The position numbers and the translations under genes were made by a program. Positions 3,504 to 62,866 of a DNA stretch of 64,000 bases are shown one piece after another; position 1 is the first letter of the stretch; each line of letters begins with the position of its first letter. The stretch covers positions 13,015 through 77,014 of the forward strand of contig JAIXYK010000057.1 of NCBI GenBank assembly GCA_027490225.1. Direction: 5' to 3'. The notes under the pieces are model-generated. The model was not told the origin of the DNA, did no database searches, and worked only from the letters and a program-made list of their open reading frames with translations. The stretch is from Bacteroidota bacterium. GTDB lineage: Bacteria; Bacteroidota; Bacteroidia; M30B66.

Positions 3504-3505
3504 GA

Positions 3506-7242: not shown

Positions 7243-7382
7243 TCTTTTTTGGTATGAATTTAGTTGAGTAAAGTAAATAAATACCTTATATAATAAATTT
7301 ATTACCAATTATTTTGTTTTTTTTCAGATTTCTAAAAAGGAGTATACAATTGAATTTCTCTGCTAATAGCGGTAGAAGTATA

Positions 7383-34100: not shown

Positions 34101-37100
34101 GTGGCGCCTGCTACTGTTATAGTAACTACTGGAGGAAGTGTTACTTTAGGTGTTGTAGCTACTAATGCTTCTTGTTTCGGCACATCTACAGGTTCTGCAA
34201 TAGCAACTGGCAATGGAGGCGCGGCACCATACACTTATTTATGGAGCAACGGTAATACAGGAAATAATGCAACAGGATTAGCTGCTGGAAATTATTCGGT
34301 TACAACAACAGATGCAACTGGTTGTACTGCTGTGCAATCGTTCACTGTAAACCAACCGAATGCATTAACTGCCACAACTACAATTGCTCCTTTTACTTGC
34401 AATGCAACCACAGGAGCAGCTTCTGTAACCGTAACAGGAGGAACAATTCCATACGCTTATCTATGGAGCAATGGAGCTACAACTGCAGCTGTTACTGGTT
34501 TGGCTAATGGAAATTATAGCGTTACAATAACCGACTTTAATGGATGTACCATCACAAGGAATGTATCCATCAATGTTCCAATTGCATTAACGGGTTCAAT
34601 TGCAGCAACAAACATAACTTGTAATGGGGTTTCCAATGGAAGTCTTTCAGCTTCAGTATCAGGAGGAACTGCCCCTTACGCTTATTTATGGAGTAATGGC
34701 GCAACAACAGCAACAATTTCTAATTTAAACACAGGCAATTACACATTGGTAATTACAGATGCAAATGGTTGCGCAATTAATAGATCTTCAAGTATCACAT
34801 CTCCAACAGCCCTTTTAGCAACAACTTCTGTTTTACCAGCTTCATGTTTGCCTAATTCAGGAGGTGCAAGTGTTACAGTTTCAGGTGGAACGAGTCCTTA
34901 CTCATACTTGTGGAGCAGCGGAGCAACTACTGCAAACGCAACGGGTTTATCAAATGGAAATTATACTGTAACTACTACAGATGCTTTAGGATGTTCAATA
35001 GTATCAAATGTTACTATAAATCAGCCTGCACCAATATTAGTTTCAATTGCAGGAACAAATGTTTCGTGTAATGGTGGAGCAAATGGAGCAGCAACTGCAA
35101 CGGTTTCCGGCGGAACTTTACCATACACTTACAATTGGACAAATAGTAGCACCTCAGCCAGTATCACAGCTTTAGTTTCAGGAAATTACACAGTAACAGT
35201 ATCAGATGCTGCAGGATGTTCTGCAAATAGCAGCATTCTTATAACACAACCAGCAGGTATTCAACTTACAACTAGTTTTACTCCAGCCATTTGCGGAGCA
35301 GCTAATGGTTCAGTAGGAGTAACGGTTTCAAGTGGCGCAGGACCATTCACTTATTCATGGAATACTATACCAGTGCAAACTACAGCAACTGCATTAAATC
35401 TACCTTCAGGAGCTTACACTGTAACAGTTACAAATGCTGCAGGTTGTTCTAATACAGCATCAGTTGTAATTCCAAATACCGGTGGCTTAAGTGTTTCTGC
35501 AAATGTTTCTTCAAATGTTAGTTGTTTTGGATTAAATGATGGAAGTGCTGTTGCTATTGCAAATGGAGGCGCAACTCCTTACACATATTTATGGAGCAAC
35601 GGTAATACAACTTCAACAGCTTCAAACCTAATTGCAGGAACATACACAGTTACTGTTACAGACAATATTGGTTGTTCAAGTGGCCAAACGGTTACTATAA
35701 CAGAACCTGTTCAGTTAAATGCAACAACAACTCAAACAGCTATTGTATGTTTTGGAAATAACAATGGTACTGCAACAGTAGTTGCAAGTGGTGGAGAAGC
35801 TCCATACACGTACAGTTGGAGCAATGGGTCAACAGCAGCAACAATTACTGGATTAAGTAGTGGTAACTACAATGTAATTGTAAACGATATCAATAATTGT
35901 ACAGTAAGCAGAAATGTAACGATTGTTTCTCCATTACAAATTATGGTAACACAAAATTTTACAACAGTTACTTGTTTTGGAGGGAATAATGGTAGTGTAA
36001 ATTTAAGTGTATCTGGAGGAAACGCACCGTATACTTGTTTATGGAATGGTGGTGCAACAGGCTTATCAAGAACAGGTTTGGTAGCTGGAAATTATACATA
36101 CACCATAACAGATGCTGCAGGATGTGTAGAAAATGGAAGTGTTACGATTTCTCAACCTACACAAATTCAAGTATCTGAAAATATTACAAATTTAAATTGC
36201 AATGCTTTAAGTGATGGAAGTATAGATATTACTATTATTGGAGGTTTACCAAACTATCAGGTTGTTTGGTCGAATGGGGCAACAACAGAAGACATTTCTG
36301 GTTTATCAGCAGGAAGTTATACTGCTACCATAACTGACATGGCAGGCTGCTCTGTTCAGAACAACGCTCAAATTACCGCACCAGATTCAATCTCTTATAC
36401 ATACACTGTAACAGGTTCTGCATGTAATGGCTCAACAGGAACTTTATTGTTCTCTGCATCTGGAGGAACATCTCCTTATGAATATTCATTAGATGGATTG
36501 CCATATCAAACTTCTCCATTTTTCGGATCTCTCACAGCAGGTATTCATACTTTGGATATTAGAGACGATAATGCTTGTGTTAAATCGACAATGGTTACTG
36601 TTCCTTCACCTGCAGGAATTGGTGTGCAAGTGAATGCGATTACTGCCGTTTCTTGCTTTGGAAATACAGATGGAAGTGCACAAGCTACAGTTACAGGAGG
36701 AAATGCTCCTTACACATTTACTTGGTCATCTGGAGAATCAGGAATTACAGCAAATGCACTTTCGGCGGGAGCAAATTTTGTGAGTGTAACCGATGCTTTA
36801 GGATGCACTGCCACACAAACGTTCTCAACTTTAGGTGCTTCTGCAATTAATATTCAAGCAACAGTAATAGATGTTTTATGTTATGGCGCTTCAACTGGGG
36901 CAATTGATTTAACCGTAACTGGAGGAGCTGGGAATTATGTATTTGATTGGAATAGCAACAACCAAACAAATATTCTATCGAATGTTGGAGCTGGCAATTA
37001 TTACATTACAGTTTATGATGACAATAATTGTTCATCAACAGATACAATACAAATTAACCAGCCATTACAACCAATCATTCTTCAAACTTTTGTAACACCA

Positions 37101-43823: not shown

Positions 43824-46800
43824 ATGTCGCAATTTAGACTTATTAAACCATCCAGCGTTTTTAAATTTTTGTTAATTTTCAACAGCTTTTTATTATTGAG
43901 TTTTAGCGCATCTGCGCAGATTTTTGCTCCAGAAGGAGTAAATATTACAGGTAGTTTTATCGGTTTTCAAAATCCTCCGGTTGATCATTTGGCGTTTGCC
44001 AGTGAAAATCAGGTACCGGGTGGTAAATTTAAATTGATTACTTCAGGAACCCGCAGGTGGCAAACTACTTTTTATTGCGCAGACACTGCTTTGGTTCCTG
44101 CTGCGGATGTACCACAAGGAGATTATGCATTTTTGTTTACTTCAGGACCTTCGAATAATGCGTTTGCAAACAAATGGGCAGGTGTAAACAATGTTGTTAT
44201 GAATACTGTATTGAATTATATTTTCGGTGCAAATACAGACAACAACATATCGCTGGTAAACAATAATTATTACACGGTGAATTTTGAAGATGTTGGATAC
44301 CAGAGCAATCGTGCTATTTTTATGGTTACCAGCAATGCGCCAGTTACAATTGATTCTGTATTTCAATTACCAGCTTCAAATTTGATTGCACCAAATATTC
44401 CAGTAGTAGTGAAAGGTTTGTTAAGTGCAGCCCCATCCTCAGAAGAAAGATTTTACCTGCGTTATTCCACAGATGCTTTTGCCTCAAGTATTACATTGCC
44501 TATGAGTGTCGTGAATGACAGTATTATAGGCACAATTCCTGGATTACCTAATGGAAATACTATTCAGTATTATGTGTTTTCGAGCACTCAGCCTACTGCA
44601 CCTAGTGTTTTACATGATTTATACACTTTGAATTTTAAGAATAACAATGGTTTGAATTTTATTTACAATGTGGCTGGAGCTCCTGTTTTTAATGTGAATT
44701 TAGGACCAGATGCGAATATTTGTCCCGGTGCAACTTTAACGCTTACAACAGACGAAACGTACGATTCTTATTTGTGGAGTACTGGTCAAACAACGGAAAC
44801 AATTCAGATTACGCAACCGGGTCAATATTTTGTAGCTGTTACACAAGGTGTTCAAATAGATAGAGATACGATAAATGTTACAGGAATTGTTCTACCAGAA
44901 TTTTCTTTAGGAAACGATACTTCCGTTTGTGCTTTAGGAGGTTTTGAATTACAATCGGAAATACAAGTTACTCCTGATGGTGATTCTTTGACAATTACTT
45001 ATGATGCCACATTAGGACAAAGCGGATTGGTTGGAGCAAGTAAAGTGTACTTTCATTCTTCATTCGAATATGCGCCGTTTGGAGGTCCAGTTACACCGTT
45101 TATTGGCAACTGGGGACAAGATGATGGAGTAGGGGAAATGACATCAATTGGAAACAATAAATGGAGAATTACCATTCAGCCACAAACGTATTATGGATAT
45201 AATCCTGGATTGTATGTGAATGGATTGTTTATGGTTTTTCGCAATGCTGATGGTACACAAACAGGAAAAGATAACAATGGCAATGATATATTTTTGGGAT
45301 TGTCAGGTCCATCGCCTGTTTCAGCTTTTGCAGGCGTTACAGCCACAAGAGATGAGAGTATCTATACAGATATAGTTTGGAATACAGAAGAAACATCGAG
45401 CAGTATTATTATTGAAAATTCAGGAACGTATTCAGCGACAGTGACCATTGCTGGCGGCTGTCAAATTTCTGATACCATTCAGGTTACTTTGTTACCTGCG
45501 CCAGCATTAGATTTACCTTCAAATATTAGCACCTGTGTGTTACCTGTTAACAATGTGATTGATGCGGGAGCAGGATTTGCAGCTTACAATTGGTCTACAG
45601 GAGCAACAACACAAACAATTGTTGTAGATACTGCCGGAACTTATTCTGTAGAAGTTACGGCTGCCAATGGTTGTAAAGCAGAAGATTCAACAGTTGTGGT
45701 AGTTGGCACTCCATTTACGTTTAGTTTAGGAAACGACACAACCGTTTGTGGAGTTGGTCCATTGGTAATTGCACCAAATGTTGGATTGTTTTTTAATGGA
45801 GATTCATTAACCATTCGCTATGATGCTACCAAAGGATTGGGAGATTTAGAAAATGTTGAGAAAGTTTATATACATTCAGGAATTTCAGTTTCTGTAAATG
45901 GCCCATGGACATATGTTGCAGGCAATTGGGGACAAGATGATGGTTGGGGAGAGATGACAGAAGTTTCGCCTAATATTTGGGAAATTACTATCAATCCAAC
46001 TTCACATTACAATTTGCCACCAGCAATGACCTATGCTGGAATCTGGATGGTATTTAGAAATGCAGATGGAACAGTTACCGGTAAGGATGATGCTGGATTG
46101 GATATTTACTTAAACACTTCAATTACACCTGCATTTAATTCTACGTTTGATGGTATTGAAGCTTCTTACACGCCTGGACCTTACCAATCTATTATTTGGT
46201 CAACAGGAGCAACATCTCAAAGTATTTCTGTGAATGCTTCAGGAACATATTCGGCAACAATAAGCAACGGAAGCTGCTCTGCAACAGATGAGATTACAAT
46301 CGACTTTTTACCAGCGCCAGCATTAACAGTTTCTAATGATACATCATTTTGTGGGGCCATTCAAAACTTACCAATAGCAGCAAGTGCAGGATTTGATGAA
46401 TATTTATGGAGCAATGGTGCTACAACTGCTTCTATTTTAGTAAATGCGCCGGGTACATATGAAGTAATAGCATCAATGAGCAACGGTTGCAGTTTTACAG
46501 ATTCTGTTGTTGTAAGAAACAATGTATTGGCAAGTTCAGTGGCATTAGGACCAGATAGAACAATTTGTGGAACACAGGTTTTAGAAATTGGTCCATCGGT
46601 TTCTGTAACATCTGCGGGAGATTCTATCACAATTGTGTATGATGCTACAAAAGGAGTTGGAGATTTAGAAGGGGCTAATAAAGTATACTTTCATTCTACT
46701 TACGAATTGGTGCCATTTGGAGGTCCGGTATCGCCTTGGGTAGGAAATTGGGGACTTGATGATGGAATTGGAGAAATGACAGAAATTGAAAATGACATTT

Positions 46801-47852
46801 GGAGCATTACGATCAATCCTTATACTTACTATGATTTACCATTAGGTACTAATTTGAATGGTTTGTTTATGGTGTTTAGAAATGCCAATGGAACATTAAC
46901 TGGAAAAGACGATGCAAATAATGATATCTTCTTAAATTTATCTGTAAATCCGCCAACTTCAGCATTCGATGGAATTACTGCAACGGCAGATTTTTCACCA
47001 TTTGAAGGCATATTGTGGTCGAATGGTGAAACTACACAAACCATTGCTGTAAATACACCTGGAACATACAGCATGATTGTATATGGAGCTGAAGGATGTA
47101 ATGTTTACGATACCATTCAGGTAAATTCTTCACCTTCGCCGTTTGTGAATTTGGGGCCAAATAGATTTATTTGTCCAGGAACGCCTTCAATAACTTTAAA
47201 TGCTGGAGCAGGATTTTCTAGCTACACATGGTCTACCGATGATACAACGCAAACATTAACGGTAAGTGAAGCCGGCGTATACATAATTGCAGTTACAAAT
47301 GTTGCAGGTTGCGTGGGTACAGACCAACTTACCGTAACTCTTCCCGGTGCAGCAAATGCACAGTTTACCGCCTTAGAAGGCAATGGCTTGCAAGTTACAT
47401 TTACAAATACATCAACTGGAACAGATACTTATGCTTGGGATTATGATGGAAATGGTACAACCGACAATAGTTCTGCAAATCCTACAACTACATTTACTTA
47501 TCCCGCAGTAGGAACTTACCCGGCAAGATTAATTGCTACAGGTTTGTGCGGAACAGATACATTTACATTGCAAGTTTCAGTAATTGGAGTTTCAACAGGC
47601 GAAGAAATTACACAAAGCAGTTGGGCTATTTATCCAAATCCTGCCAATGAATTGTTGAATATGAGTTTGCCTCAACTATTTAATGGAACAAGTAATATTG
47701 AAATTTATAATGAAATGGGTGCTTTGTTAAGAAAAGAAAGTACCAGCGATAAGATGCAAGTAATAAACGTTTCTGAATTTAGTTCAGGAATTTATATCGT
47801 ACGGGTAACAAATGGCAATACTGTTTATAACAAGCGATTTATAAAACAATAA
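43824..47852 (+). CDS. large T9SS type-A cargo protein with three copies of a ~110-aa GNWGQDDG.GEMT module, Ig-like modules and a PKD domain
   Basis: Signal peptide. Three modules (TI.YDAT.G...L.G..KVY.HS......GP.....GNWG.DDG.GEMT......W.ITI.P...Y.......NG..MVFRNA.GT.TGKD..G.DI.L). YxWSxGxTT Ig-like modules. PKD segment. CTD AIYPNPANELLNMSL...GIYIVRVTNG. Confidence 0.7.
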   Translation: MSQFRLIKPSSVFKFLLIFNSFLLLSFSASAQIFAPEGVNITGSFIGFQNPPVDHLAFASENQVPGGKFKLITSGTRRWQTTFYCADTALVPAADVPQGDYAFLFTSGPSNNAFANKWAGVNNVVMNTVLNYIFGANTDNNISLVNNNYYTVNFEDVGYQSNRAIFMVTSNAPVTIDSVFQLPASNLIAPNIPVVVKGLLSAAPSSEERFYLRYSTDAFASSITLPMSVVNDSIIGTIPGLPNGNTIQYYVFSSTQPTAPSVLHDLYTLNFKNNNGLNFIYNVAGAPVFNVNLGPDANICPGATLTLTTDETYDSYLWSTGQTTETIQITQPGQYFVAVTQGVQIDRDTINVTGIVLPEFSLGNDTSVCALGGFELQSEIQVTPDGDSLTITYDATLGQSGLVGASKVYFHSSFEYAPFGGPVTPFIGNWGQDDGVGEMTSIGNNKWRITIQPQTYYGYNPGLYVNGLFMVFRNADGTQTGKDNNGNDIFLGLSGPSPVSAFAGVTATRDESIYTDIVWNTEETSSSIIIENSGTYSATVTIAGGCQISDTIQVTLLPAPALDLPSNISTCVLPVNNVIDAGAGFAAYNWSTGATTQTIVVDTAGTYSVEVTAANGCKAEDSTVVVVGTPFTFSLGNDTTVCGVGPLVIAPNVGLFFNGDSLTIRYDATKGLGDLENVEKVYIHSGISVSVNGPWTYVAGNWGQDDGWGEMTEVSPNIWEITINPTSHYNLPPAMTYAGIWMVFRNADGTVTGKDDAGLDIYLNTSITPAFNSTFDGIEASYTPGPYQSIIWSTGATSQSISVNASGTYSATISNGSCSATDEITIDFLPAPALTVSNDTSFCGAIQNLPIAASAGFDEYLWSNGATTASILVNAPGTYEVIASMSNGCSFTDSVVVRNNVLASSVALGPDRTICGTQVLEIGPSVSVTSAGDSITIVYDATKGVGDLEGANKVYFHSTYELVPFGGPVSPWVGNWGLDDGIGEMTEIENDIWSITINPYTYYDLPLGTNLNGLFMVFRNANGTLTGKDDANNDIFLNLSVNPPTSAFDGITATADFSPFEGILWSNGETTQTIAVNTPGTYSMIVYGAEGCNVYDTIQVNSSPSPFVNLGPNRFICPGTPSITLNAGAGFSSYTWSTDDTTQTLTVSEAGVYIIAVTNVAGCVGTDQLTVTLPGAANAQFTALEGNGLQVTFTNTSTGTDTYAWDYDGNGTTDNSSANPTTTFTYPAVGTYPARLIATGLCGTDTFTLQVSVIGVSTGEEITQSSWAIYPNPANELLNMSLPQLFNGTSNIEIYNEMGALLRKESTSDKMQVINVSEFSSGIYIVRVTNGNTVYNKRFIKQ
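44978..46940 (+). repeat. three dispersed ~320-nt internal repeats (period ~820 nt) encoding the GNWGQDDG module
   Basis: Copies at approx 44978-45300, 45808-46130 and 46618-46940, with near-identical protein motifs. Confidence 0.65.
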
Positions 47853-52105: not shown

Positions 52106-52351
52106 ATGCCCGAATTAACTATCAAGTATAAAAATAAGAGGACTTTGGATGCTTTGTTAGATTTTGCAAAGTATTTCGATTTTTCAATTATACTTCCATC
52201 TAAATCTAAAGGTAAAATATCGGAGATAAATGGCGTTTCTATAATTCGTGCCGATAATTCTATTGACACTTCTGAACTCGAAACTATATTTTCCACAAAC
52301 AATTTTGATGCAAAAGAAATCCGTGAAAAGGCATGGAAAAGAAAAAAATAG
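52106..52351 (+). CDS. hypothetical small protein
   Basis: 81-aa ORF in an AT-rich gap with no homology clue; overlapping antisense ORFs make the coding assignment uncertain. Confidence 0.3.
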   Translation: MPELTIKYKNKRTLDALLDFAKYFDFSIILPSKSKGKISEINGVSIIRADNSIDTSELETIFSTNNFDAKEIREKAWKRKK

Positions 52352-52429: not shown

Positions 52430-53053
52430 ATGAAGCAAAAATTACTCTTATTTGCACTAGTATTCTTAGTTTTTCTTCACTTTTCGGCAAATGCACAAGA
52501 AAAATACTTAGGTGCTGCAATTAGCAGCAATGCACCTTCATTGCCCGTTACTGGAATTGGAAATGTATTTCAGGGAAGTTTTCACCCAGGAATTGATGTT
52601 AATTATTCGAAGAAATTCAATAAAAAAGAAGTGAATCAATGGTTGTATAAAGTAAATGCAGGATTAATCTGGCAGAAATATGTGCAGACGCTTTTTACAG
52701 TTTCTGGAATGGCAGTTTATAGAAATAATCATTTTAAAAGATTAAACTTCGATTCAGGAATTGGCGCTGGTTACGGAGCATCTTTTGAAGGAGGTGCTGT
52801 TTTAAAGTTAAATGAAGATGGTGTATATGAAACCAGAAATAAATTTTCACCACGTTCTCAATTTGTAATTTTAGTGCAAGCCGGAATTATATATAATTTA
52901 AGAAAAGATGTAGCACAAAGTATGGCAATAACGCTGCATGCAAAAACCATAATTCAAGGTCCTTTTGTAAAAGGTTATGTGCCGCTTTTGCCAATAAATG
53001 CAATAGAATTGGGTGTTTTAATTCCTTTAAAAAAGAAAAATGAAAATAAATAA
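52430..53053 (+). CDS. hypothetical secreted protein
   Basis: Signal peptide (LVFLHFSANAQ); 207 aa, beta-rich. Confidence 0.45.
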   Translation: MKQKLLLFALVFLVFLHFSANAQEKYLGAAISSNAPSLPVTGIGNVFQGSFHPGIDVNYSKKFNKKEVNQWLYKVNAGLIWQKYVQTLFTVSGMAVYRNNHFKRLNFDSGIGAGYGASFEGGAVLKLNEDGVYETRNKFSPRSQFVILVQAGIIYNLRKDVAQSMAITLHAKTIIQGPFVKGYVPLLPINAIELGVLIPLKKKNENK

Positions 53054-54215
53054 ATCAATATTTTATTCGGTAATTATTTTGCTTTTATTTTCATTAAATA
53101 ATTGCAAAAAAGAAATTGGCCCAACTGAAGATATTGCTTGTTCTGGGCTGATAATTAATGAAAATCATCCAAAGAAAAATGCAATCAATGCAATTATTAC
53201 AGATTATGTAAAAAAGGGACTTCCCGGAATATCCGTATTAATTGAAGATAGCAATGGTATTTATGCCAATGCAGGTGGATTTGCTGATATTGAGAATAAT
53301 ATACCTTTTAAAACTTGTCATATTTCCAAAGCGGCAAGTATAACTAAAATGTTGGTGGGTACGCTTACTTTAAAGTTGCAAGAAGAAGGAAAGATAAATC
53401 TGGATGAGCCTATTAGTAAATATATCGATGCTGAAATTCTTAAAAAGATAGACAATGCAGAAGGAAAAACCATTCGACAATTGATGAACCATACAACAGG
53501 TATTTTCGATGTAATTACTTCTTCTAAATTTTACCTGGCAGTATTGAATACACCCAATAAAAAATGGACGCAGGAAGAGTTGTTGGAATATGTTTATGGG
53601 GAAGATGGATATGAATTAAATGCTCCCTATCCAGCACATTACAGCAATACCAATACTTTGTTATTGTCTATGTGCATAGAAAAGGCCACTGGTATTGCAC
53701 ATCATGTTTTATTAAAAGAAAAAATATTGTTGCCATTAAGTTTGGAAAATACATATTACCAAGGAAGAGAAGATTTACCGGGATTTACAGCACAAGGTTA
53801 TTTTGATTTGCATAACAACAATTCAATTGTAAACGTGAGCAATTTAATTACAGGTAGCGGAAATGGTTATGGTGGAATATTTTCGAATGTATTTGATTTA
53901 CATAAATTCGCAAAAGCGCTATTGGTAAATAAAACCATTTTAAGTGATTCATCTTTAAATGAAATGCAGCAATTTCTTCAAGAAGATACCGATTTTTATA
54001 CCGGTCCTGGATTGATTAAAAAATTCACCGATAAAGCCGCATTTGGAATTGGCCACACGGGCAGAGATTTAGGCTATAGTGCTGATTTATTTTACTTTCC
54101 AGCACAAAATAAGACCTTGGTGTTTTTTGTGAATTATGGTACCAATGGTTCAAGCGCTTTGAAAGATGTATTTAAACAATTTGAAAGTGATGTTGCGGAT
54201 GCTTTGTTGGAGTAG
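53040..54215 (+). CDS. serine hydrolase, class-C beta-lactamase/penicillin-binding-protein family lipoprotein
   Basis: Lipobox LNNC. SxxK motif (SITK) within HISKAASITKMLVG. YSN-like HYSNTNT motif. ~390 aa. Confidence 0.7.
   Translation: MKINKSIFYSVIILLLFSLNNCKKEIGPTEDIACSGLIINENHPKKNAINAIITDYVKKGLPGISVLIEDSNGIYANAGGFADIENNIPFKTCHISKAASITKMLVGTLTLKLQEEGKINLDEPISKYIDAEILKKIDNAEGKTIRQLMNHTTGIFDVITSSKFYLAVLNTPNKKWTQEELLEYVYGEDGYELNAPYPAHYSNTNTLLLSMCIEKATGIAHHVLLKEKILLPLSLENTYYQGREDLPGFTAQGYFDLHNNNSIVNVSNLITGSGNGYGGIFSNVFDLHKFAKALLVNKTILSDSSLNEMQQFLQEDTDFYTGPGLIKKFTDKAAFGIGHTGRDLGYSADLFYFPAQNKTLVFFVNYGTNGSSALKDVFKQFESDVADALLE
54177..54215 (+). repeat. direct repeat copy 1: the 3' end of the beta-lactamase-family gene
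   Basis: caatttgaaagtgatgttgcggatgctttgttggagtag aligns at ~85% identity with 54806..54843. Confidence 0.7.
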
Positions 54216-54274
54216 AGAAATTAGAAATTAACTTCAGTTAAATTGTAAATTGCCTTAAATTAAATCACTTAATA

Positions 54275-54802
54275 ATGAAAAAATCGGTATTAGTCATTAT
54301 CGCATTAACCGCTTCATTTTGTTTGGGCTTTGCATTTAATAATGTACTATTAAAACAAAAAAATGAAGAAGAGAAGTTAAAAAAAGTAACAGGCATTGGT
54401 GGTATATTTTTTAAGTGTAAAGACCCTAAAGCTGTGCGCGACTGGTATCAAACACATTTGGGATTAAACACCAATCAATACGGTTCTGTATTTGAGTGGT
54501 ATCAAGGAGCTGATTCTACGAAAAAAGGATTTTCTCAATGGAGTCCTTTTAAGGAAACAACTAAATATTTTGCCCCATCTACCAAAGAATTCATGATTAA
54601 TTACCGTGTGGCTAATTTAGAAGCACTATTAATCGAATTGAAGAAAGAAGGCGTAACTATTACGGATACTATGCAAAGCTTTGATTACGGAAAGTTCGTC
54701 CACATTATGGATATAGAAGGCAATAAAATTGAATTGTGGGAACCAAATGATGTGGTGTATGAAAAAATGGGAAAAGATATGGGGGCTGGAACTACAAAAT
54801 AG
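54275..54802 (+). CDS. VOC (glyoxalase/bleomycin-resistance-like) family protein
   Basis: 175 aa. GIGGIFFKCKDPKAVRDWY and HIMDIEGNKIELWE resemble the VOC beta-alpha-beta-beta-beta module. Confidence 0.5.
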   Translation: MKKSVLVIIALTASFCLGFAFNNVLLKQKNEEEKLKKVTGIGGIFFKCKDPKAVRDWYQTHLGLNTNQYGSVFEWYQGADSTKKGFSQWSPFKETTKYFAPSTKEFMINYRVANLEALLIELKKEGVTITDTMQSFDYGKFVHIMDIEGNKIELWEPNDVVYEKMGKDMGAGTTK

Positions 54803-54805
54803 TTG

Positions 54806-54843
54806 CAATTTGAAAGTGAATTGGAGGATGCTTTGTTAGACTG
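54806..54843 (+). repeat. direct repeat copy 2: degenerate duplicate of the upstream gene's 3' end
   Basis: caatttgaaagtgaattggaggatgctttgttagactg would encode QFESELEDALLD against the original QFESDVADALLE. Lies between the VOC stop and the mazF stop. Confidence 0.7.
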
Positions 54844-54848
54844 TTTTT

Positions 54849-55172
54849 TTAATCTACAAAAGTCTCTTTCAATACAGCTTTAACTTTTATTATTTCTTTT
54901 TCAGATAATGTGCCTAGAATTTTTACAATTCTTTGTTTGTCGATGGTTCTGATTTGATCTAATACAATCCAGCCGGTTTTTTTATCGAAATTTATGGAAA
55001 CGCGTGTTGGGTAATTTTTAGAACTACTTGTCATTGGTGCAACAACAATAGTATCTAAATGCTTATTCATTTCATTTGGCGATATAATAACGCATGGTCG
55101 CGTCTTTTTCATTTCGCTCCCAATTGTTGGGTCAAGATTTACTAAAACTATTTGATATTGTTTCATTACCAT
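54849..55172 (-). CDS. mazF: type II toxin MazF/PemK family endoribonuclease
   Basis: 107 aa; IVLVNLDPTIGSEMKKTRPCVIIS...VVAPMTS pattern of PemK/MazF. Confidence 0.75.
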   Translation of the reverse strand: MVMKQYQIVLVNLDPTIGSEMKKTRPCVIISPNEMNKHLDTIVVAPMTSSSKNYPTRVSINFDKKTGWIVLDQIRTIDKQRIVKILGTLSEKEIIKVKAVLKETFVD

Positions 55173-55408
55173 TCTTCCAAATTTTCATCTTCGAAAAAAT
55201 CGTTCATTAAAAGTTTGTCGTCACCATTTTTATGCATTTGTTTGAATGATTTTTCCCAACCGGCGCGTGGCGCAGAATGCGGTTTTAGAATAATATACCC
55301 TTTCTCTAAAATGAGCTCAATTTTATCTGTAATATTGTATTTCTGAAGCAGCGTTTTTGGAAGTCTAATTCCTTTAGAATTTCCAATTGGAATAATAGAA
55401 ATATCCAT
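55166..55408 (-). CDS. mazE: type II antitoxin MazE (AbrB/SpoVT-type swapped-hairpin)
   Basis: 80 aa. IPIGNSKGIRLPKTLL matches the AbrB/MazE fold. Overlaps mazF by 7 nt. Confidence 0.65.
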   Translation of the reverse strand: MDISIIPIGNSKGIRLPKTLLQKYNITDKIELILEKGYIILKPHSAPRAGWEKSFKQMHKNGDDKLLMNDFFEDENLEEW

Positions 55409-55490
55409 ATCATTTTTTTTTTTGTGATTACAAAGTTAGTACAAATTATTTAGAAATTTACAACCTTTCGAAAGTCTATATTTTTATTGT

Positions 55491-55519
55491 CTAAATGCCC
55501 ACAATAGCGACTGATGGCA
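55491..55519 (+). repeat. direct repeat copy 1 flanking the methyltransferase gene
   Basis: ctaaatgcccacaatagcgactgatggca versus 56540..56567 ctaaatgcccgcactagcggctgaggca (25/29 identical). Confidence 0.55.
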
Positions 55520-55724
55520 TTGTATTAATTCACATTATTAATACCAAAAGTATTTTGAAACGATTAGATTCAGTAATTTATTCCTTATCTTCGGACTTGG
55601 TAAAACAGATAGAATTCGTTTCTAATGTAGCAGCTTTTATTGACAGAGAAATGTTTTTTCATTGCTTTAAAACCGAAAAAAGAATAAGAATTGAAAGTAA
55701 GAATATTTAATTAAAAAATAGATT

Positions 55725-56510
55725 TTGAAAGATAAAATAAACAGTAATTATAAAGTTGGCGAATTAATTTATGATGCAAATATTTATGATGGTTTAAATA
55801 CTTTTCTGAATGATTTGCAATTTTATAAAAAGTGGCTACCGAAAAATAAGGATGCAAGAATACTGGAACTTTGCTGCGGCACAGGCAGACTTACACTTCC
55901 AATTGCAAAGGAAGGTTATGATATAACTGGTGTAGACAATGCATCAACTATGCTGAAGCAAGCAAAATTAAAATCGGCTGAGGCAGGATTAGAGATCAAG
56001 TTTATTGAAGCAGATATTAGAAATTTGGATTTACCTGAAAAATATGATTTAATTTTTATTCCATTTAATTCTATACATCATTTATATAAAAATGAAGATT
56101 TGTTGATGGCATTTAATGCGGTAAAAAAGCATCTTAAAAATGGAGGTTTATTTTTGTTAGATTGTTACAATCCCAATATTCATTATATAGTTGGAAATGA
56201 AAATGAATTAAAACAAATAGCTGAATACAAAACCAGCGATGGAAGAAAAGTGCTGATAAAACAGGCGATGCGATATGAAAATAGCACACAGATAAATAGA
56301 ATAGAATGGCTTTATTTTATAAATGGTGAATTTAATTCAATACAAAATCTGGATATGAGAATGTATTTTCCACAAGAATTAGATAGCTATTTGAAATTTA
56401 TAGGATTTAATATTGTGAAGAAGTTTGGAAGTTTTGAGGAGGAAGCGTTTAACGATAAATCGGAGAAACAGGTATTTGTGTGTGAAATAATTAATGATAA
56501 AAAATTATAA
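55725..56510 (+). CDS. class I SAM-dependent methyltransferase
   Basis: Motif I ILELCCGTGRLT; acidic residue after the beta2 strand (GVDNAS); 261 aa. Confidence 0.7.
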   Translation: MKDKINSNYKVGELIYDANIYDGLNTFLNDLQFYKKWLPKNKDARILELCCGTGRLTLPIAKEGYDITGVDNASTMLKQAKLKSAEAGLEIKFIEADIRNLDLPEKYDLIFIPFNSIHHLYKNEDLLMAFNAVKKHLKNGGLFLLDCYNPNIHYIVGNENELKQIAEYKTSDGRKVLIKQAMRYENSTQINRIEWLYFINGEFNSIQNLDMRMYFPQELDSYLKFIGFNIVKKFGSFEEEAFNDKSEKQVFVCEIINDKKL

Positions 56511-56539
56511 ATCGATTTATTCTATTTAGCATTTACTCC

Positions 56540-56567
56540 CTAAATGCCCGCACTAGCGGCTGAGGCA
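56540..56567 (+). repeat. direct repeat copy 2 flanking the methyltransferase gene
   Basis: See 55491..55519. Confidence 0.55.
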
Positions 56568-56669
56568 AATAGCTTGCGCATGAAATAAGCAACTATGGCC
56601 GAAGACGCGACCCCGCCGACGATATGGTGTTTTTGAAAATAATGTAAATGCGGGGGAGTGCCCAAAAAA

Positions 56670-57542
56670 TTACCTCGCTATTTTGGAAGGAGAAATACCG
56701 AAATAGTTTTTAAATGCTTTGCTAAAGCTTGGTAAATCAGCGAAATTTAATTTTAAGGCAATGGTTTCTAATGCGTATTTATTTTCGAAAATTAATTCTT
56801 TGGCGCGGAGCAATCTTAAATGCATTAAATATTGATAGGGTGTTTGCTGATAGATTTGTTTGAAATAGCGTATTAAATCGAATTTTGTAAGTGCTGAATT
56901 TTCTGCAATTAAATCTAGGTTAATTTCATCTTTAAAATTTAATTCTATGAAGTTTTTTGCTTTTTCTATGCGATGAAATATCTCGCTTTTGGTACTTTTT
57001 TTAATGCGCTCTATTCTTACTAATTTCGTATTTAATTGTAATTGAATATTGCAAACTTCCTGTGCCATAAGCTGAAGTTTTTCGGCAATTATTTCAGGTG
57101 AATTAAAATGTTGAATGATTGAATTTACAGTACTTTGAACGGTTGTATTGGCCTCAATACTTTGATATACATTGAGGTCGTGCACCAAATTAATGGCGCG
57201 CATATTTTCACTTAAATCATTTGAAAAAATAAGGTTGTTAAATGCAGCATTTATTAAATCATTGCTCAATTGAATGCATAAAGACTCTACTGGCGTAGGA
57301 TTTGAGAATTTTGCATCAATTGTTAAATCGGGTGGAGTAATGATGAATTTTCCTGATTCAACTTTATATTGATTATTATTGATATAATATTTTTCGTAGC
57401 CCGAAATGGTGTATTTTAAACTAAGGGAATCGGCTTGCAAGCGACCATCATAATTCGTTAAGGCAGAATAAATAATTGAATTATCTCCTTTACCTTTAAT
57501 TTTTTCGGTAGAATGATCGTATAACTTAATTGTTTCTATCAT
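56670..57542 (-). CDS. AraC family transcriptional regulator
   Basis: C-terminal double-HTH AraC domain (LIRYFKQIYQQTPYQYLMHLRLLRAKELI...SFSKAFKNYFGISPS). Start set at the ATG that forms an ATGA overlap with the upstream gene's stop; the ORF is open from 57581. Confidence 0.7.
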   Translation of the reverse strand: MIETIKLYDHSTEKIKGKGDNSIIYSALTNYDGRLQADSLSLKYTISGYEKYYINNNQYKVESGKFIITPPDLTIDAKFSNPTPVESLCIQLSNDLINAAFNNLIFSNDLSENMRAINLVHDLNVYQSIEANTTVQSTVNSIIQHFNSPEIIAEKLQLMAQEVCNIQLQLNTKLVRIERIKKSTKSEIFHRIEKAKNFIELNFKDEINLDLIAENSALTKFDLIRYFKQIYQQTPYQYLMHLRLLRAKELIFENKYALETIALKLNFADLPSFSKAFKNYFGISPSKIAR

Positions 57543-58795
57543 TTTTTCATAGATTTTCCTGCAACAAAGCCCGATGACCAAGCGTGTTGAAAATTAAAAC
57601 CACCTGTGATTCCATCCACATCTAATACTTCGCCAGCAAAATAAAGGTTCGGAATTTTTTTGGACATACAGGTATTGCTATCTATTTCGCTCAATTTTAC
57701 GCCTCCACAAGTTACAAATTCTTCTTTAAAGGTTGTTTTGCCTTGAATTTCAAACAAATCGGCTGAAATTGCTTCCACCAGTAAATTGAGTTTTTTGGAA
57801 GAAATATCGGCCCATTTTAAGTTCGCATCAATTTGAGATTTGTTGCATAAATGTTCCCATAAACGCGCTGGAATGCCATCGAACACGCGTGAATGTACTG
57901 CTCTTTTAGCATTCGAAATTCTCTGTTTTTCGAGCCATTCCCTGATTTCATCTTGCGTTAAATCGGGCAACCAGTGCACACGAATGTTGAAGTGGTAATT
58001 CATTTCGGCCAATTTTCTGGCGCCCCAAGCAGAACACCTTAATATGGCAGGTCCGCTGAAACCCCAATGTGTAATGAGAATTGGGCCCGTTTCTTCGAGT
58101 TTGGTACCATCTATTCTTACCCGCGCATTTTCCACTGAAAGTCCCATGAGGGAAACCATGCTGTGATTTTTTACATTGAAGGTAAATAAACTTGGAACGG
58201 GCGTTTCTATTGCGAAACCCAATTTACTTAACCAGTCGAAACCTTCTTTTTTAGGATGACCGCCCGTTGTGATAAGTAATTTTTTGCACCTCAGTTTTTC
58301 CTCATTTACAGTAAGTTCGAAATACTTTTCGGTGGGTAAAATATCAGTTACGGTGGCGTGTTGCTTGATTTCAATCTTGTTATTTTCAAATTCCTGCATG
58401 AGGCAATTGATAATGCTGATAGATTGGTCGGTCTGCGGGAACATTCTGCCATCGGCTTCATTTTTCAAGGGTACACCGCGCGATTCGAACCAATTGATGG
58501 TGTCTTGCGGGCCGAATTGAAATAATAACTTAAATAAATGCTGTTTGCCTCGCGGATATTGTGCCGAGAAGTTTTTCAAATCGAATAGATGATGGGTAAC
58601 GTTGCAGCGCCCTCCGCCCGAAATTTTAACTTTTGCAAGGCAGTTTCCGGTCTTCTCTATTAATAGTATTTTCTCTAATTGTGCTTCGTTTGCAGCCGTA
58701 ATTGCTCCAAAAAAACCTGCTGCACCACCGCCAATAACTATTAAATCGTAAACAAACACGCCTATTAATTTTACCTGCAATATTAACAATTCCAA
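57539..58795 (-). CDS. HI0933-like FAD-dependent oxidoreductase (BaiN/aminoacetone-oxidase family flavoprotein)
   Basis: N-terminal dinucleotide-binding YDLIVIGGGAAGFFGAITAA. KISGGGRCNVTH motif. ~410 aa. Confidence 0.75.
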   Translation of the reverse strand: MELLILQVKLIGVFVYDLIVIGGGAAGFFGAITAANEAQLEKILLIEKTGNCLAKVKISGGGRCNVTHHLFDLKNFSAQYPRGKQHLFKLLFQFGPQDTINWFESRGVPLKNEADGRMFPQTDQSISIINCLMQEFENNKIEIKQHATVTDILPTEKYFELTVNEEKLRCKKLLITTGGHPKKEGFDWLSKLGFAIETPVPSLFTFNVKNHSMVSLMGLSVENARVRIDGTKLEETGPILITHWGFSGPAILRCSAWGARKLAEMNYHFNIRVHWLPDLTQDEIREWLEKQRISNAKRAVHSRVFDGIPARLWEHLCNKSQIDANLKWADISSKKLNLLVEAISADLFEIQGKTTFKEEFVTCGGVKLSEIDSNTCMSKKIPNLYFAGEVLDVDGITGGFNFQHAWSSGFVAGKSMKK

Positions 58796-59800: not shown

Positions 59801-61147
59801 ATGTCGGCTGCATTAGACGCAATTTCTCCAATAGACGGTCGATATTACAGACATACTTCTGTTTTAAGAGGATATTTCTCTGAACAAGCCTTGTTTAAAT
59901 ACAGGGTGTTGGTAGAGATTGAGTATTTTATTGTGTTGTCCACTGTTGGCATTCAACAGTTTCCGCCCTTGTCTCAAAGTCAGCAAAAGAATTTGAGGGC
60001 GATTTATGCAACATTTTCTAGCGAAGATGCCGAAAAGATTAAGGAAATTGAAAAACGCACCAACCACGATATTAAGGCAGTTGAATATTTTATAAAAGAT
60101 AAAATTTCTGAAATCGGCTTAGGTCAATACAAAGAATGGGTGCATTTCGGATTGACTTCTCAGGATATTAATAACACAGCCATTCCGCTTTCCATCAAAG
60201 ACGCAACATTAGAAGTGTTGTTGCCTGAATTGGAGCAATTTACAGATAGTTTATACCAGCTGGCCATACAATGGAAGAACATTCCCATGTTGGCCCGCAC
60301 GCATGGACAAGCCGCTTCTCCAACAGGTTTAGGAAAAGAAATTTTTGTGTTTGTAGAACGCCTGCGCATTCAGATTGCACAGTTAAAAACAACGGTTTGG
60401 GCAGCTAAATTTGGAGGTGCAACCGGAAATTTCAATGCACACAATGTGGCATTTCCTCAGGTGGAATGGAAGGCATTTGCCACACATTTCGTTGCAGAGC
60501 TAGGTTTAACAAGAAGCGAAACCACTACACAAATAGAACATTACGATCATTTGGCAGGTTGGTGCCACCAGTTGATAAGAATACATACCATTTTGGTTGA
60601 TTTTTGTCGTGATGTGTGGACGTACATTTCGATGGATTACTTTAAGCAAAAAGTAACTGCCGGTGAAATTGGTTCCAGCGCAATGCCGCATAAGGTAAAC
60701 CCGATAGATTTCGAAAATGCAGAAGGAAACCTAGGAATTGCCAATGCCTTACTGGATTATTTCGCCTTAAAATTACCCATTTCGAGGTTGCAGCGCGATC
60801 TAACCGACTCAACTGTTTTACGCAACATTGGAGTTCCCATTGCGCACAGCGTTATTGCTTTAACATCTTTGAAAAAAGGAGTAGGGAAGCTGGTAGTAAA
60901 CGAAAAAGCCATTCAAGCCGACCTGCAAAAGAATGCAGTAGTAATTGCAGAAGCCATTCAAACGGTATTGCGCAGAGAAGCTTACCCAGAACCCTACGAA
61001 GCCTTGAAACAGCTTACCCGCGGAAAAGAAACCATCGATTTAGCATCCATTCAGGAGTTCATTAATAGCTTGGATATTTCTACCGAATTGAAAATGGAAT
61101 TGTTGGCGATAACTCCGGAGAATTATACGGGGGTGACGGGTTTTTAA
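59801..61147 (+). CDS. purB: adenylosuccinate lyase
   Basis: SPIDGRY N-terminus, fumarate-lyase signature (GSSAMPHKVNP), 448 aa. Confidence 0.9.
   Translation: MSAALDAISPIDGRYYRHTSVLRGYFSEQALFKYRVLVEIEYFIVLSTVGIQQFPPLSQSQQKNLRAIYATFSSEDAEKIKEIEKRTNHDIKAVEYFIKDKISEIGLGQYKEWVHFGLTSQDINNTAIPLSIKDATLEVLLPELEQFTDSLYQLAIQWKNIPMLARTHGQAASPTGLGKEIFVFVERLRIQIAQLKTTVWAAKFGGATGNFNAHNVAFPQVEWKAFATHFVAELGLTRSETTTQIEHYDHLAGWCHQLIRIHTILVDFCRDVWTYISMDYFKQKVTAGEIGSSAMPHKVNPIDFENAEGNLGIANALLDYFALKLPISRLQRDLTDSTVLRNIGVPIAHSVIALTSLKKGVGKLVVNEKAIQADLQKNAVVIAEAIQTVLRREAYPEPYEALKQLTRGKETIDLASIQEFINSLDISTELKMELLAITPENYTGVTGF
61097..61146 (+). repeat. direct repeat copy 1: the 3' end of purB
   Basis: ggaattgttggcgataactccggagaattatacgggggtgacgggttttta aligns with 62817..62866 (~40/48 identical). 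Confidence 0.7.
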
Positions 61148-61299
61148 TTTTTTAACCTTCACATATAGTTTGCGGCTTAACAGAAGTGTGGGAATGGTGA
61201 ACGAAATCCTTTAACTTAGCGAGAAGTTACAAATAAATCGAATTCTTCAAACTTCCCCAATGCCTAAATTTTAGTTAGCCGCTTTTAGCTGCTGGTAGT

Positions 61300-61686
61300 T
61301 TATCCCCAAATCTGCTTCACTTTGTAATTCTTAAACAACTTGTCGCGAGTTATAATAATTAATTCTTCCGATATAGCTTGGGCAATAATTAATCTATCAA
61401 ACGGATCATTATGATGTGAGGGTAATTTTGATAGCTGCAAAAGATGTTCGTAGTTTATTGGAATAATTTCTATTTGATTTCTGTCTATAAAATCGAATAA
61501 TTCTTTCAAAGAAAGTCCTAAATCTAATTTATTATTTTGAAGTTTTATTGTAATTTCCCATAAACTTGCCGCACTCAAAAAGCAAGACTCATCAATATTT
61601 CCTATTATGCGCTTTGCAGATTCGGGTAGTAGCTTGTCGCCAGAAACAAACCAAAGAAAGGCATGTGTGTCGAGAAGATAAGCCAT
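61300..61686 (-). CDS. vapC: type II toxin VapC (PIN-domain ribonuclease)
   Basis: MAYLLDTHAFLW N-terminus and acidic PIN residues; 128 aa. Confidence 0.7.
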   Translation of the reverse strand: MAYLLDTHAFLWFVSGDKLLPESAKRIIGNIDESCFLSAASLWEITIKLQNNKLDLGLSLKELFDFIDRNQIEIIPINYEHLLQLSKLPSHHNDPFDRLIIAQAISEELIIITRDKLFKNYKVKQIWG

Positions 61687-61889
61687 TAAATATAATCTTT
61701 GAACTCATCTAATGGTTCATCGAAATCTGGAGAAAGGATGATCTTACCCTTTGCAAACCCAAACTCACGAGCTTTTAGCTTTGGTTTTGACTTTGATTTA
61801 TTTTTCAAAAACTCAACAAAATTAGCTACTTCTGCCCGCAATTCTTTTGGTAAAGAGTTGATTTCAAGCTTTAATGTCGTATTTGTCAT
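61686..61889 (-). CDS. type II antitoxin (DUF2281/VapB-like)
   Basis: 67 aa. 1-nt overlap with vapC. C-terminal ...GKIILSPDFDEPLDEFKDYI is typical of DUF2281 antitoxins. Confidence 0.5.
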   Translation of the reverse strand: MTNTTLKLEINSLPKELRAEVANFVEFLKNKSKSKPKLKAREFGFAKGKIILSPDFDEPLDEFKDYI

Positions 61890-61982
61890 TCAACAAATTT
61901 AAAATAATATGATGATTTATCAAACTTTAATTTAGATGTTGATTGTGAAGCCCGTATGCAGCTTGCTAAGCGGAGGGCGTTA

Positions 61983-62288
61983 TTATCCAAACAACAAATT
62001 CACTCTTTTTCCAAGTCCAAATTCAAAAATTCTGTAAAGTGTGGATAGTTGAATGTCACATTTTCCGTTTTCAAGTCTAGAAATATAACTTTTTTTAGCT
62101 CCAACTTTTTCGGCAAGTTGTTCTTGTGTCATATTTGCCTCTTTACGAGCTTCTTTAAGAATCTCGCTGATAACAAAATATTGAGCCTTCTCTTCAAAAC
62201 TATCTCGTTTTTCAGCGCCAATTTTTCCGTATTTTATGTCTAACAACTCATCAAAGTTCTTAGCATTTCTGATTTTATCTTTGTCCAT
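61983..62288 (-). CDS. XRE-family helix-turn-helix transcriptional regulator (HigA-like antitoxin candidate)
   Basis: HTH MTQEQLAEKVGAKKSYISRLENGK; 101 aa. Confidence 0.7.
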   Translation of the reverse strand: MDKDKIRNAKNFDELLDIKYGKIGAEKRDSFEEKAQYFVISEILKEARKEANMTQEQLAEKVGAKKSYISRLENGKCDIQLSTLYRIFEFGLGKRVNLLFG

Positions 62289-62385
62289 TACTTTTTTAAT
62301 TCATTCATAAGTTTCGATGCCAAATCGATTTCCTTTTTTGCACGGTATTGGGTGGTGGGCACTATCAAATTTTTTAGTCCCAAAG

Positions 62386-62559
62386 CTAAGAATGAAGAAC
62401 TTTTGCTTTCTTTTTTATTGTCTCAGGTTTTTGCTTTTTATTTTTTGATTCGCTCTTATAATTACGAATAAAATCACTAATTTCTTTACGAGCATTGTCA
62501 GTCAACGGATCGCTTGATATTATAAAGTCAATTCCTTTCGGTTCTTTTATATGTCCCAT
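62386..62559 (-). CDS. hypothetical small basic protein (57 aa) upstream of the XRE gene
   Basis: Hand-translated minus-strand ORF MGHIKEPKGIDFIISSDPLTDNARKEISDFIRNYKSESKNKKQKPETIKKKAKVLHS. It is below the ORF-track length cut-off. Confidence 0.25.
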   Translation of the reverse strand: MGHIKEPKGIDFIISSDPLTDNARKEISDFIRNYKSESKNKKQKPETIKKKAKVLHS

Positions 62560-62816
62560 AATTTTTTTAAGATTTAAAATACTTGAAACCGCGGTATCAA
62601 AACTGCCGCCCGAAATTGTATTCAGAATTTAATTTGTTAAATTGTCTACAATGAAGTCGAGATTTATTTTTTTCCTTTTTTTCACATCGTAAGTTTACGA
62701 AAAATCTCTTTTCAATCTACCGTAATTTTTATTTATGTTGGTTGTTTTTGTGCCTTACGCCCAACTTAATATCAGAGATAATTTTCAAAAATCATATATA
62801 AAACCAGCAATAGGGA

Positions 62817-62866
62817 AGTTGTTGGCGATAACGCCAGAGAATTATATGGGGGAGACTTCGTTTTAA
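62817..62866 (+). repeat. direct repeat copy 2: degenerate duplicate of the purB 3' end
   Basis: ggaagttgttggcgataacgccagagaattatatgggggagacttcgttttaa would encode ...KLLAITPENYMGETSF* against purB ...ELLAITPENYTGVTGF*. Confidence 0.7.

Follow-up and report, generated by a model that had tools for sequence, protein, structure and literature searches.

A 64,000-nucleotide (nt) stretch from a Bacteroidota bacterium (assembly GCA_027490225.1, contig JAIXYK010000057.1, positions 13,015 to 77,014 of the forward strand), hereafter the window, carries a serine hydrolase (SH) gene whose 3' end is present twice, once in place and once, in degraded form, behind a VOC/glyoxalase-like gene that separates SH from a convergent mazFE toxin-antitoxin pair. 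The second copy, a pseudogenised SH gene end referred to below as the relic, arose by duplication together with the SH-VOC-mazFE arrangement and is old, fixed and decaying. Nothing shows an active mobile cassette, and we lean, with some reserve, towards viewing the repeat as the scar of one old recombination event of recombinase-independent origin, which became fixed in the lineage and is not a working cassette.

Two copies of one gene end

The longest direct repeat of the region, as returned by a repeat search, spans 35 nt at 86% identity (54177-54211 and 54806-54840). Copy 1 (54177-54212, plus strand) consists of the working last 12 codons of SH, translates to QFESDVADALLE* (here and below, an asterisk marks a stop) and is followed by a TAG stop at 54213-54215. 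Copy 2, the relic (54806-54841, plus strand), is identical to it at 30 of the 36 positions of these 12 codons, and reads QFESELEDALLD before running on as GAC TGT without a stop, the former stop being found at 54842-54843 with 1 nt missing. The first-pass annotation of this DNA, made from sequence alone, had described the last 39 nt of SH as recurring at ~85% identity 4 nt after the VOC stop. The repeat is real, but the gap is 3 nt (the VOC stop TAG at 54800-54802 is followed by TTG, and copy 2 starts with CAA at 54806) and the stop is not conserved, so that ~36 of the 39 nt are common to both copies. As the 629-nt spacing is not a multiple of three, copy 2 does not lie in the frame of SH; it is in the reading frame of VOC, and it finishes a few nt short of the convergent mazF stop. 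A search for further copies with a degenerate 32-nt pattern matched the two repeat sites only in the entire 64 kb, and nothing in any of 100 shuffles.

The gene that supplied the repeat (SH; 53040-54215, plus strand) encodes a 391-amino acid (aa) protein of the beta-lactamase/D-Ala-D-Ala carboxypeptidase family (PF00144, E=3.9e-38) that scores under every NCBIfam class C beta-lactamase and AmpH cut-off, and which by these cut-offs should not be annotated as a bona fide beta-lactamase. Since all of ~120 SH homologues (56-95% identity, 385-397 aa) share the ending ...F[ED]xxxxDxLLx*, the repeated segment is the true C-terminus of the family. The motif can also be written FESELxDxLLx* or FES[DE]xxDxLLx*, and in the clade nearest the window it takes the form QFESD[VI]AD[AV]LL[ED]*. 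This ending, together with the in-frame TGA that still closes the relic in three related contigs (L169, L171 and L174), confirms the early suggestion that copy 2 is derived from coding sequence, although it should not be annotated as a gene.

The relic has none of the features that would make it a structured recombination site or a terminator. No inverted repeat involving 54803-54848 was found, the segment 54795-54860 folds no better than shuffled sequences on either strand (z = +0.86 and -1.34), and a terminator motif was looked for in the relic without success. Both an attC-like and a terminator structure were rejected on these three grounds, which are also why the relic is not regarded as attC-like.

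What lies between the two copies is short (590 nt): a 59-nt spacer from the SH stop to the VOC start (54216-54274, plus strand), the VOC open reading frame (ORF) and 3 nt, with no integrase gene or remnant inside. The spacer is ~70% conserved, with indels, between the window and the lineage of L169. Homology between the sequence that follows copy 1 and the sequence past the SH stop in relatives lacking VOC was considered and rejected, the only shared stretch being 'TAGAG', in L074, and no conserved VOC upstream region was found in other genomes. The VOC gene itself (54275-54802, plus strand) encodes a 175-aa protein with a hydrophobic, signal-like N-terminus, whose match to PF00903 (E=0.003, 18.4 bits) is under the gathering score of 20.6, and which has no match in NCBIfam or among PDB sequences. 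Some of its homologues (70-95% identical) have precomputed PF00903 hits or carry the source name 'VOC family protein'. The protein is 175 aa long in 101 of 120 homologues, most of which end in TTK*. As the VOC stop is the native stop of the family, the inserted DNA ends no further than 3-7 nt beyond it. The gene is under purifying selection (dN/dS, the ratio of nonsynonymous to synonymous rates, is ~0.01-0.08 against other strains). A recent transfer of VOC between strains was rejected, since the VOC protein of L006, a strain 95% identical to the window, is 100% identical and yet its gene shows 22 synonymous differences. In the metagenomic loci L079-L158 (e.g. L089, L090, L096, L111 and L115), the signal-peptide VOC gene is often followed, within ~25 nt, by a paralogue without signal peptide (KVTGIGGIFF...); the lineage of the window has the first, signal-peptide-bearing gene alone.

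Fixation, age and decay of the relic

For comparison, ~175 loci were fetched (labelled L006-L175 etc.). The order SH-VOC-relic-mazFE is found in all of at least 14 contigs with this VOC (92-100% identity in aa), which form three lineages ~10% apart in nucleotides. Look-ups of the exact proteins returned numerous conspecific contigs, out of independent samples, with identical gene order throughout, and more diverged contigs have the same order (VOC 92-95% and MazF 93-97% identical in aa, the locus ~89-91% in nucleotides). By contrast, relatives lacking VOC, with an SH at 91% (L074/L075), 84% (L076) or 71% (L077/L078) aa identity, have different genes after SH and no second gene end. In ~25 GTDB metagenome-assembled genomes (MAGs) with SH orthologues at 41-69%, the C-terminal motif is single, and neither VOC nor mazE nor mazF occurs within 5 kb. 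Conversely, VOC homologues (67-83% aa) in 80 metagenomic loci lie in contexts unrelated to the SH locus. Since relatives without VOC have one gene end, and VOC homologues elsewhere have other contexts, VOC is foreign to the SH locus and the relic is tied to its presence. The first-pass annotation was therefore right that copy 2 is a displaced or duplicated SH 3' end accompanying VOC, and that the arrangement is the footprint of an insertion at a gene's 3' end, because the relic is found with VOC and is absent from relatives that lack it.

The same comparison is unfavourable to mobility. An 'empty site', with SH directly before mazF, had been proposed as the structure to look for in related genomes, and in its predicted form SH would end in ...GATGCTTTGTTRGAS-TGA-TTTTTTTAATC before mazF. 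None was found among the ~175 loci and the listed matches: contigs bearing VOC are all occupied, and relatives lacking it have other genes after SH. An approach to the empty site through mazF was abandoned, as identical and 93-95% MazF proteins all adjoin VOC and the relic; the next-closest ones (no more than 86%) belong to unrelated genera. Neither an SH-VOC pair without relic (among the fetched loci) nor a second genomic location of the VOC unit was found, the VOC-relic junction and the VOC protein have no match in IMG/VR, and on plasmids there are VOC homologues only at 60% identity or less. Within the clade, the duplicated segment is thus largely what the first-pass annotation had named as fatal to a mobile unit, namely a segment present at orthologous loci, ancient and non-mobile. 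Its single-gene cassette dependent on a site-specific recombinase is not supported either: the arrangement is fixed in all contigs of the clade that were recovered, no second location of VOC was found and there is no hairpin or inverted repeat.

The relic exists in three states of decay, which give its relative age. In lineage W (the window, L006, L173 and L168) it is CAATTTGAAAGTGAATTGGAGGATGCTTTGTTAGACTG-TTTTTTT, and the stop is lost. In lineage S (L169, L171, L172 and L174) it is ...AGCGATGTGGTGGATGCTTAGTTAGACTGATTTTTTT, i.e. QFESDVVDA*LD*, with an internal TAG and the terminal in-frame TGA. In lineage T (L175) it is ...TTTAAAAGTGATGTAATGGATGTTTTGTTGAAGTTATTTTTT, which reads QFKSDVMDVLLKL and has 12 substitutions in 39 nt. 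Pairwise differences over these 39 nt amount to 0.13 between W and S and to 0.28-0.31 against T, compared with 0.08-0.12 in neighbouring coding DNA and 0.30-0.40 at the synonymous sites of SH, VOC and mazF. The relic is not kept as coding sequence but drifts at roughly the neutral rate.

When the ancestral relic was rebuilt column by column, using copy 1 as outgroup, the result was CAATTTGAAAGTGATGTNGNGGATGCTTTGTT[A/G]GA[C/G]TGA, in which 33-36 of 36 positions are as in copy 1. It had its own stop, TGA, followed by unrelated DNA, and the ancestral stop of copy 1 was TAG, as in L074. Because the ancestral relic was nearly identical to copy 1, the ~85% identity seen today reflects the age of the event and not a diverged copy brought in by an element. 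The latter had been proposed at first, and three lineages with three decay states descending from a near-identical ancestor contradict it. An ancestral or foreign origin of the relic's 'ELE' version was likewise discarded, since L169 and L175 show DVV and DVM and the version in the window is a product of drift. The event is older than the W/S/T split and, on the SH tree, younger than the split from L074.

Near-identical ancestral copies, with the relic downstream on the same strand, are also what would be expected if a segment containing SH had been duplicated in tandem and later deletions had left no more than the last 12 codons of the second copy. Such a history is highly improbable in our view. 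VOC would have to have been part of the duplicated unit, two or more precise deletions would be needed, probes from the middle and the 5' end of the gene found no other SH-derived fragment nearby, two SH copies are seen in no relative, and VOC is foreign to the SH locus in all other genomes examined.

Other gene-end scars and the islet behind SH

The SH repeat is not alone. Two extra repeat-insert-repeat structures lie near SH, with repeats unlike in sequence and length (28-141 nt for an intergenic one; 48 nt at the end of purB). The purB structure, the third in the window, emerged when the window was compared with itself in search of direct repeats of which one copy is intergenic. The final 48 nt of the adenylosuccinate lyase gene purB (59801-61147, plus strand) including its TAA (61100-61147, the functional 3' end) occur again at 62819-62866 on the same strand, 40 of the 48 nt being identical, and this purB relic, TAA stop included, reads LLAITPENYMGETSF where copy 1 reads LLAITPENYTGVTGF. 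The insert (61148-62818) contains genes on the minus strand (61300-62559): a PIN toxin (61300-61686; E=2e-20) and a DUF2281 antitoxin (61686-61889; E=3e-17), followed by an HTH_3 protein (61983-62288; E=3e-13) and a 57-aa ORF (62386-62559), which are probably a second toxin-antitoxin module.

To see how frequent such relics are, the last 39 nt of ~840 genes from all fetched loci were scanned against 6 kb of downstream DNA, with a threshold of at least 30 matches in 39 and the reverse complement as control. Relics restricted to the 3' end were found for three genes (SH, purB and the sucC of L062), with 31-34 matches in 39, against none in the control, whose maximum was 26. False positives discarded on inspection were L021 (scaffold gap), L155 (integrase fragments) and tandem VOC or other paralogues. 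In L062, from the unrelated MAG Kiruna_bin-04925, the end of sucC plus ~40 nt past its stop (3040-3125) is repeated at 4399-4480. A single Fib_succ_major lipoprotein gene (3424-4398) is inserted, the sucC relic follows directly after its stop and in frame (4399-4437), and no recombinase was found near the site. In both single-gene cases (VOC and sucC), the relic is thus in the frame of the inserted gene and starts 0-7 nt past its native stop. These figures also settle the possibility of a chance similarity or an assembly artefact, which is practically negligible. Apart from the short length of the repeat nothing speaks for it, whereas the absence of matches in the 100 shuffles and the margin over the scan control go against it, and it is refuted by independent JGI, ENA and Logan assemblies in which the structure recurs with diverged sequences.

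Several cases of the same kind raise the question of a dedicated insertion mechanism. One such mechanism would be site-specific integration, in which the last ~36 nt of SH served as attB and a tyrosine or serine recombinase, encoded at another place in the genome, inserted a small circle of VOC and a corresponding attP, so that copy 1 would be attL and copy 2 attR. Much of the architecture is as expected from such a process: the insert sits behind a conserved gene, between direct repeats of that gene's 3' end which run up to the stop codon, copy 1 completes the SH ORF (as in attL/attR-type islands), the same layout recurs at the ends of purB in the window and sucC in L062, relics restricted to gene ends are seen after three genes and never in the control, the stop of the inserted ORF abuts the relic in two independent cases, and integrase-driven islands are known to leave partial copies of their target genes behind (10.1101/2020.12.28.424599; also as outlined in PMC4482086). 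We nevertheless hold it to be unlikely. Pfam searches for integrases, resolvases and transposases found none in 20 mid-size ORFs of the window and the genes of the locus (the largest ORFs were not scanned), which bears out the early remark that no integrase is present, at least for the ORFs tested, and there is none around the sucC site of L062 either. No tRNA gene was found. The 590-nt insert is too small for an integrase and has no remnant of one, the repeats lack inverted-repeat or hairpin organisation, the three gene-end repeats are unrelated and a fourth repeat is intergenic (which would call for several recombinases or for one of low specificity), and the VOC unit is fixed at one locus only.

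Alternatively, these Bacteroidota might possess an undescribed process by which a lone gene or a toxin-antitoxin pair is put downstream of a housekeeping gene while 30-140 nt of the target are duplicated, as a very long target-site duplication, by means of an enzyme acting in trans. The concentration of cases (three repeat-insert-repeats inside a 9-kb part of the window, and one in an unrelated MAG) is suggestive, as is the nearly exact ancestral duplicate of the SH end. Moreover, each of the three gene-end repeats contains the hexamer TGTTGG, with the codons always divided as xTG TTG Gxx (54205-54210 for SH; 61101-61106 and 62820-62825 for purB; ~3068-3073 in L062). However, this hexamer was noticed post hoc, would be shared by chance in ~1% of cases (p=0.01) and sits at a different position in each repeat; the repeats are heterogeneous in length and position, the inserts have no terminal inverted repeats, and the stops of the two SH copies differed from the origin (TAG and TGA), unlike an exact target duplication reaching the stop. 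This makes the process very unlikely. We give equally little credence to a cassette-like process of freshwater Bacteroidota, using a recombinase in trans or RecA-driven circles. Each insertion of a single accessory gene or a toxin-antitoxin pair immediately downstream of a housekeeping gene would then copy the final 35-50 nt of that gene and leave a relic right after the stop of the inserted one, and SH/VOC, purB/toxin-antitoxin and sucC/lipoprotein would be three products of the process.

The surroundings of the VOC gene are as changeable as the insert itself. Homology to L074 stops at 54217, two bases beyond the SH stop, and resumes at 56564, just before an AraC gene, and L074 has three unrelated genes in place of this interval. 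The whole SH-AraC interval (54218-56563, 2.3 kb) is a replaceable islet that has been rebuilt repeatedly, and it is this interval in its entirety, rather than the VOC gene alone, that is variable.

The islet continues after the relic with the mazF/PemK toxin gene (54849-55172, minus strand; PF02452, E=3.2e-33, NCBIfam match under cut-off), which is convergent with VOC and has its stop a few nt from the relic, and the mazE-like antitoxin gene (55166-55408, minus strand; PF04014, E=3e-5). The two genes overlap at 55166-55172 and qualify as a type II toxin-antitoxin mazEF pair, with PF04014 marginally below its cut-off (24.3 bits against 24.7). Next comes a module made of orf71 (55495-55710) and a class I SAM methyltransferase gene (55725-56510; Methyltransf_25, E=6e-22), together 55495-56510 on the plus strand. 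The segment 55520-56531 with this module is bracketed by a ~83% identical direct repeat, DR-B (CTAAATGCCC...), with copies at 55491-55518 and 56540-56567. The left copy (plus strand), a piece of the B element, runs into the beginning of orf71; the right copy is the first 28 nt of that element (56532-56669, plus strand), a relatively GC-rich intergenic sequence of ~140 nt with hairpins, which forms the right-hand edge of the variable islet relative to L074. L169 and L171 have a single-copy, 'empty' site for the module (1588-1615 in L171), and orf71, the methyltransferase and AraC are absent from L169/L171/L174. L006 possesses an additional PemK toxin-antitoxin pair, adjoining a 72-nt partial second B element at the left position (7216-7292).

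Other observations concern the neighbourhood at large. The B element is 88-98% conserved between lineages; in L074 (4845-5000) it has complementary 11-nt insertions on either side of the central hairpin, and the changes in L171 lengthen the stem. No Rfam family was found in the window, including at the B element, and folding of a six-sequence alignment revealed no covariation; the element may represent a structured DNA site or a small RNA that has escaped annotation. The AraC-family regulator gene (56670-57544) is precisely missing in L169/L171/L174, which instead have 23 unrelated nt, without flanking repeat, between the B element and the HI0933-like gene. On the other side, SH is directly preceded by orf207 (52430-53053), and this pair is conserved in ~25 Bacteroidota MAGs. 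Between orf207 and a PDZ-hydrolase gene, the small orf81 (52106-52351) is mostly missing in L006 (52061-52400 in the window versus 3900-4150), a strain-level indel. Most repeats of the window have another source, two very large ORFs (31119-38981, 2620 aa; 43824-47852, 1342 aa) with long arrays of diverged ~225-nt repeats, which probably encode repeat-domain surface or secreted proteins.

Origin of the scar and known systems

The scenario that we favour is as follows. In the ancestor of the freshwater Bacteroidota species cluster of the window, VOC and its 59-nt leader would have been placed between SH and the convergent mazFE pair, in an event that duplicated the last 36-37 nt of SH. The upstream copy would have stayed as the C-terminus of SH, the downstream copy would have lost all function and decayed separately in each lineage, and the event would be one among several by which the islet between the SH and AraC/HI0933 genes has gained, lost or exchanged modules. 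As for the mechanism, two alternative versions of the locus, 'hydrolase-VOC' and 'hydrolase-mazFE', may have been joined without a recombinase, by homologous recombination in shared flanking DNA at one end and, at the other, by an illegitimate join at the microhomology CAAT/CAATTT just past the VOC stop. This would amount to homology-facilitated illegitimate recombination or, equivalently, to the entry of a circular fragment by a Campbell-type single crossover at the short gene end common to both molecules. According to the summary in PMC6382021, homology-facilitated illegitimate recombination uses microhomologies of 3-10 bp. Many VOC homologues have TT..CAA[TC] right after their stop, and CAA occurs within 11 nt in 32 of 79 loci, compared with a background of 21%; the TTGCAAT of the window is hence probably VOC's own flank, overlapping the repeat (CAATTT, 54806-54811) by 4-6 nt, which would make it a candidate microhomology.

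Three considerations favour such a join: (i) the two copies differed from the start in their stop codon and in all the DNA after it, (ii) the four repeats differ in sequence, length and position, and (iii) there is no att-like structure and, in the ORFs tested, no recombinase. Other observations weigh against it. The predicted parental alleles (SH-mazFE and a relic-free SH-VOC) were not found among the fetched loci. The insert ends just 3 nt past the VOC stop and the sucC relic likewise starts 0-7 nt past a stop, in frame; ends as tidy as these exceed what random illegitimate joins would give and hint at a defined cassette boundary. The SH and purB repeats end at the stop codon, as would an att site restoring a gene end. 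No recombination breakpoint is visible inside SH, in which there is no step in divergence marking an imported 3' part or a homologous crossover. The microhomology argument depends on a flank motif of loose conservation. Finally, the relic is identical in the window, L006 and L173 though the adjacent VOC DNA differs by 7-10%, which fits recent local recombination, weak constraint being another possibility.

Whatever produced it, the relic offers a well-dated case of a single accessory gene entering a compact bacterial chromosome, because it fixes the insertion point to the nucleotide and its three decay states give a relative age, while the neighbouring presence/absence variants tell of a 2.3-kb interval between two core genes rebuilt repeatedly. 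If gene-end relics prove systematic, they would be a cheap, sequence-only marker to locate and order gene gains in uncultured genomes, and might point to an unrecognised insertion mechanism.

Among known systems are integron cassettes. These consist of a single ORF and an attC site, inserted in trans by IntI. The attC site lies directly 3' of the ORF, is ~55-140 nt long and forms a hairpin by virtue of its imperfect inverted repeats (R''-L''...L'-R'). The SH/VOC unit is similar in having a single gene, a short leader, a repeat right after the stop, toxin-antitoxin neighbours and no recombinase within the unit. It differs in that its repeat, copied directly from a gene end, does not fold and is not an imperfect palindrome with R''/L''-L'/R' cores, and in that the SH locus has no intI or attI and no co-oriented array; no recombinase domain was found in the tested ORFs, and the neighbouring modules are in mixed orientation with differing boundary repeats. 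Flexible genomic islets, replacement or additive, which sit between core genes in free-living aquatic bacteria such as Alteromonas, are another parallel: here too, strain- or species-specific modules (VOC, toxin-antitoxin pairs, methyltransferase, AraC regulator and unknown genes) lie between the same conserved flanks. The SH islet differs in being very small (2.3 kb) and in keeping internal duplication scars that date single events.

Tyrosine recombinases also integrate genomic islands and prophages at the ends of tRNA or protein-coding genes, which the attL/attR direct repeats restore, e.g. the dusA-associated islands outlined in PMC4482086. The SH locus resembles these in the insertion at a conserved gene end, the short flanking gene-end repeat, the intact target and the partial, non-functional distal copy. 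It departs from them in the size of its insert (590 nt with one cargo gene), in having no integrase or excisionase or remnant thereof and no recombinase in the tested ORFs, and in showing no sign of excision or of other integrations at the site in relatives. Tycheposons and similar elements, which leave cargo remnants and partial tRNA copies in islands (10.1101/2020.12.28.424599), share with the SH locus the occurrence of partial target-gene ends, read as older insertion footprints, within a small variable island beside cargo or defence-type genes. The targets here are, however, protein-coding genes (SH and purB) and an intergenic element rather than tRNAs, and there are no integrase fragments.

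The process with most bearing on our preferred scenario is homology-facilitated illegitimate recombination as foreign DNA is taken up (de Vries & Wackernagel 2002 and others, as summarised in PMC6382021). As in this process, a foreign segment lies beside conserved DNA without a dedicated recombinase, one novel junction has a candidate microhomology of 4-6 nt, and related genomes hold alternative gene content between the same flanks. Unlike at the SH locus, where the event is read from sequence and the parental alleles were not recovered, the process is known solely from experiments with naturally transformable model bacteria. Set beside these systems, the SH/VOC relic adds a further case to a kind of scar already known.

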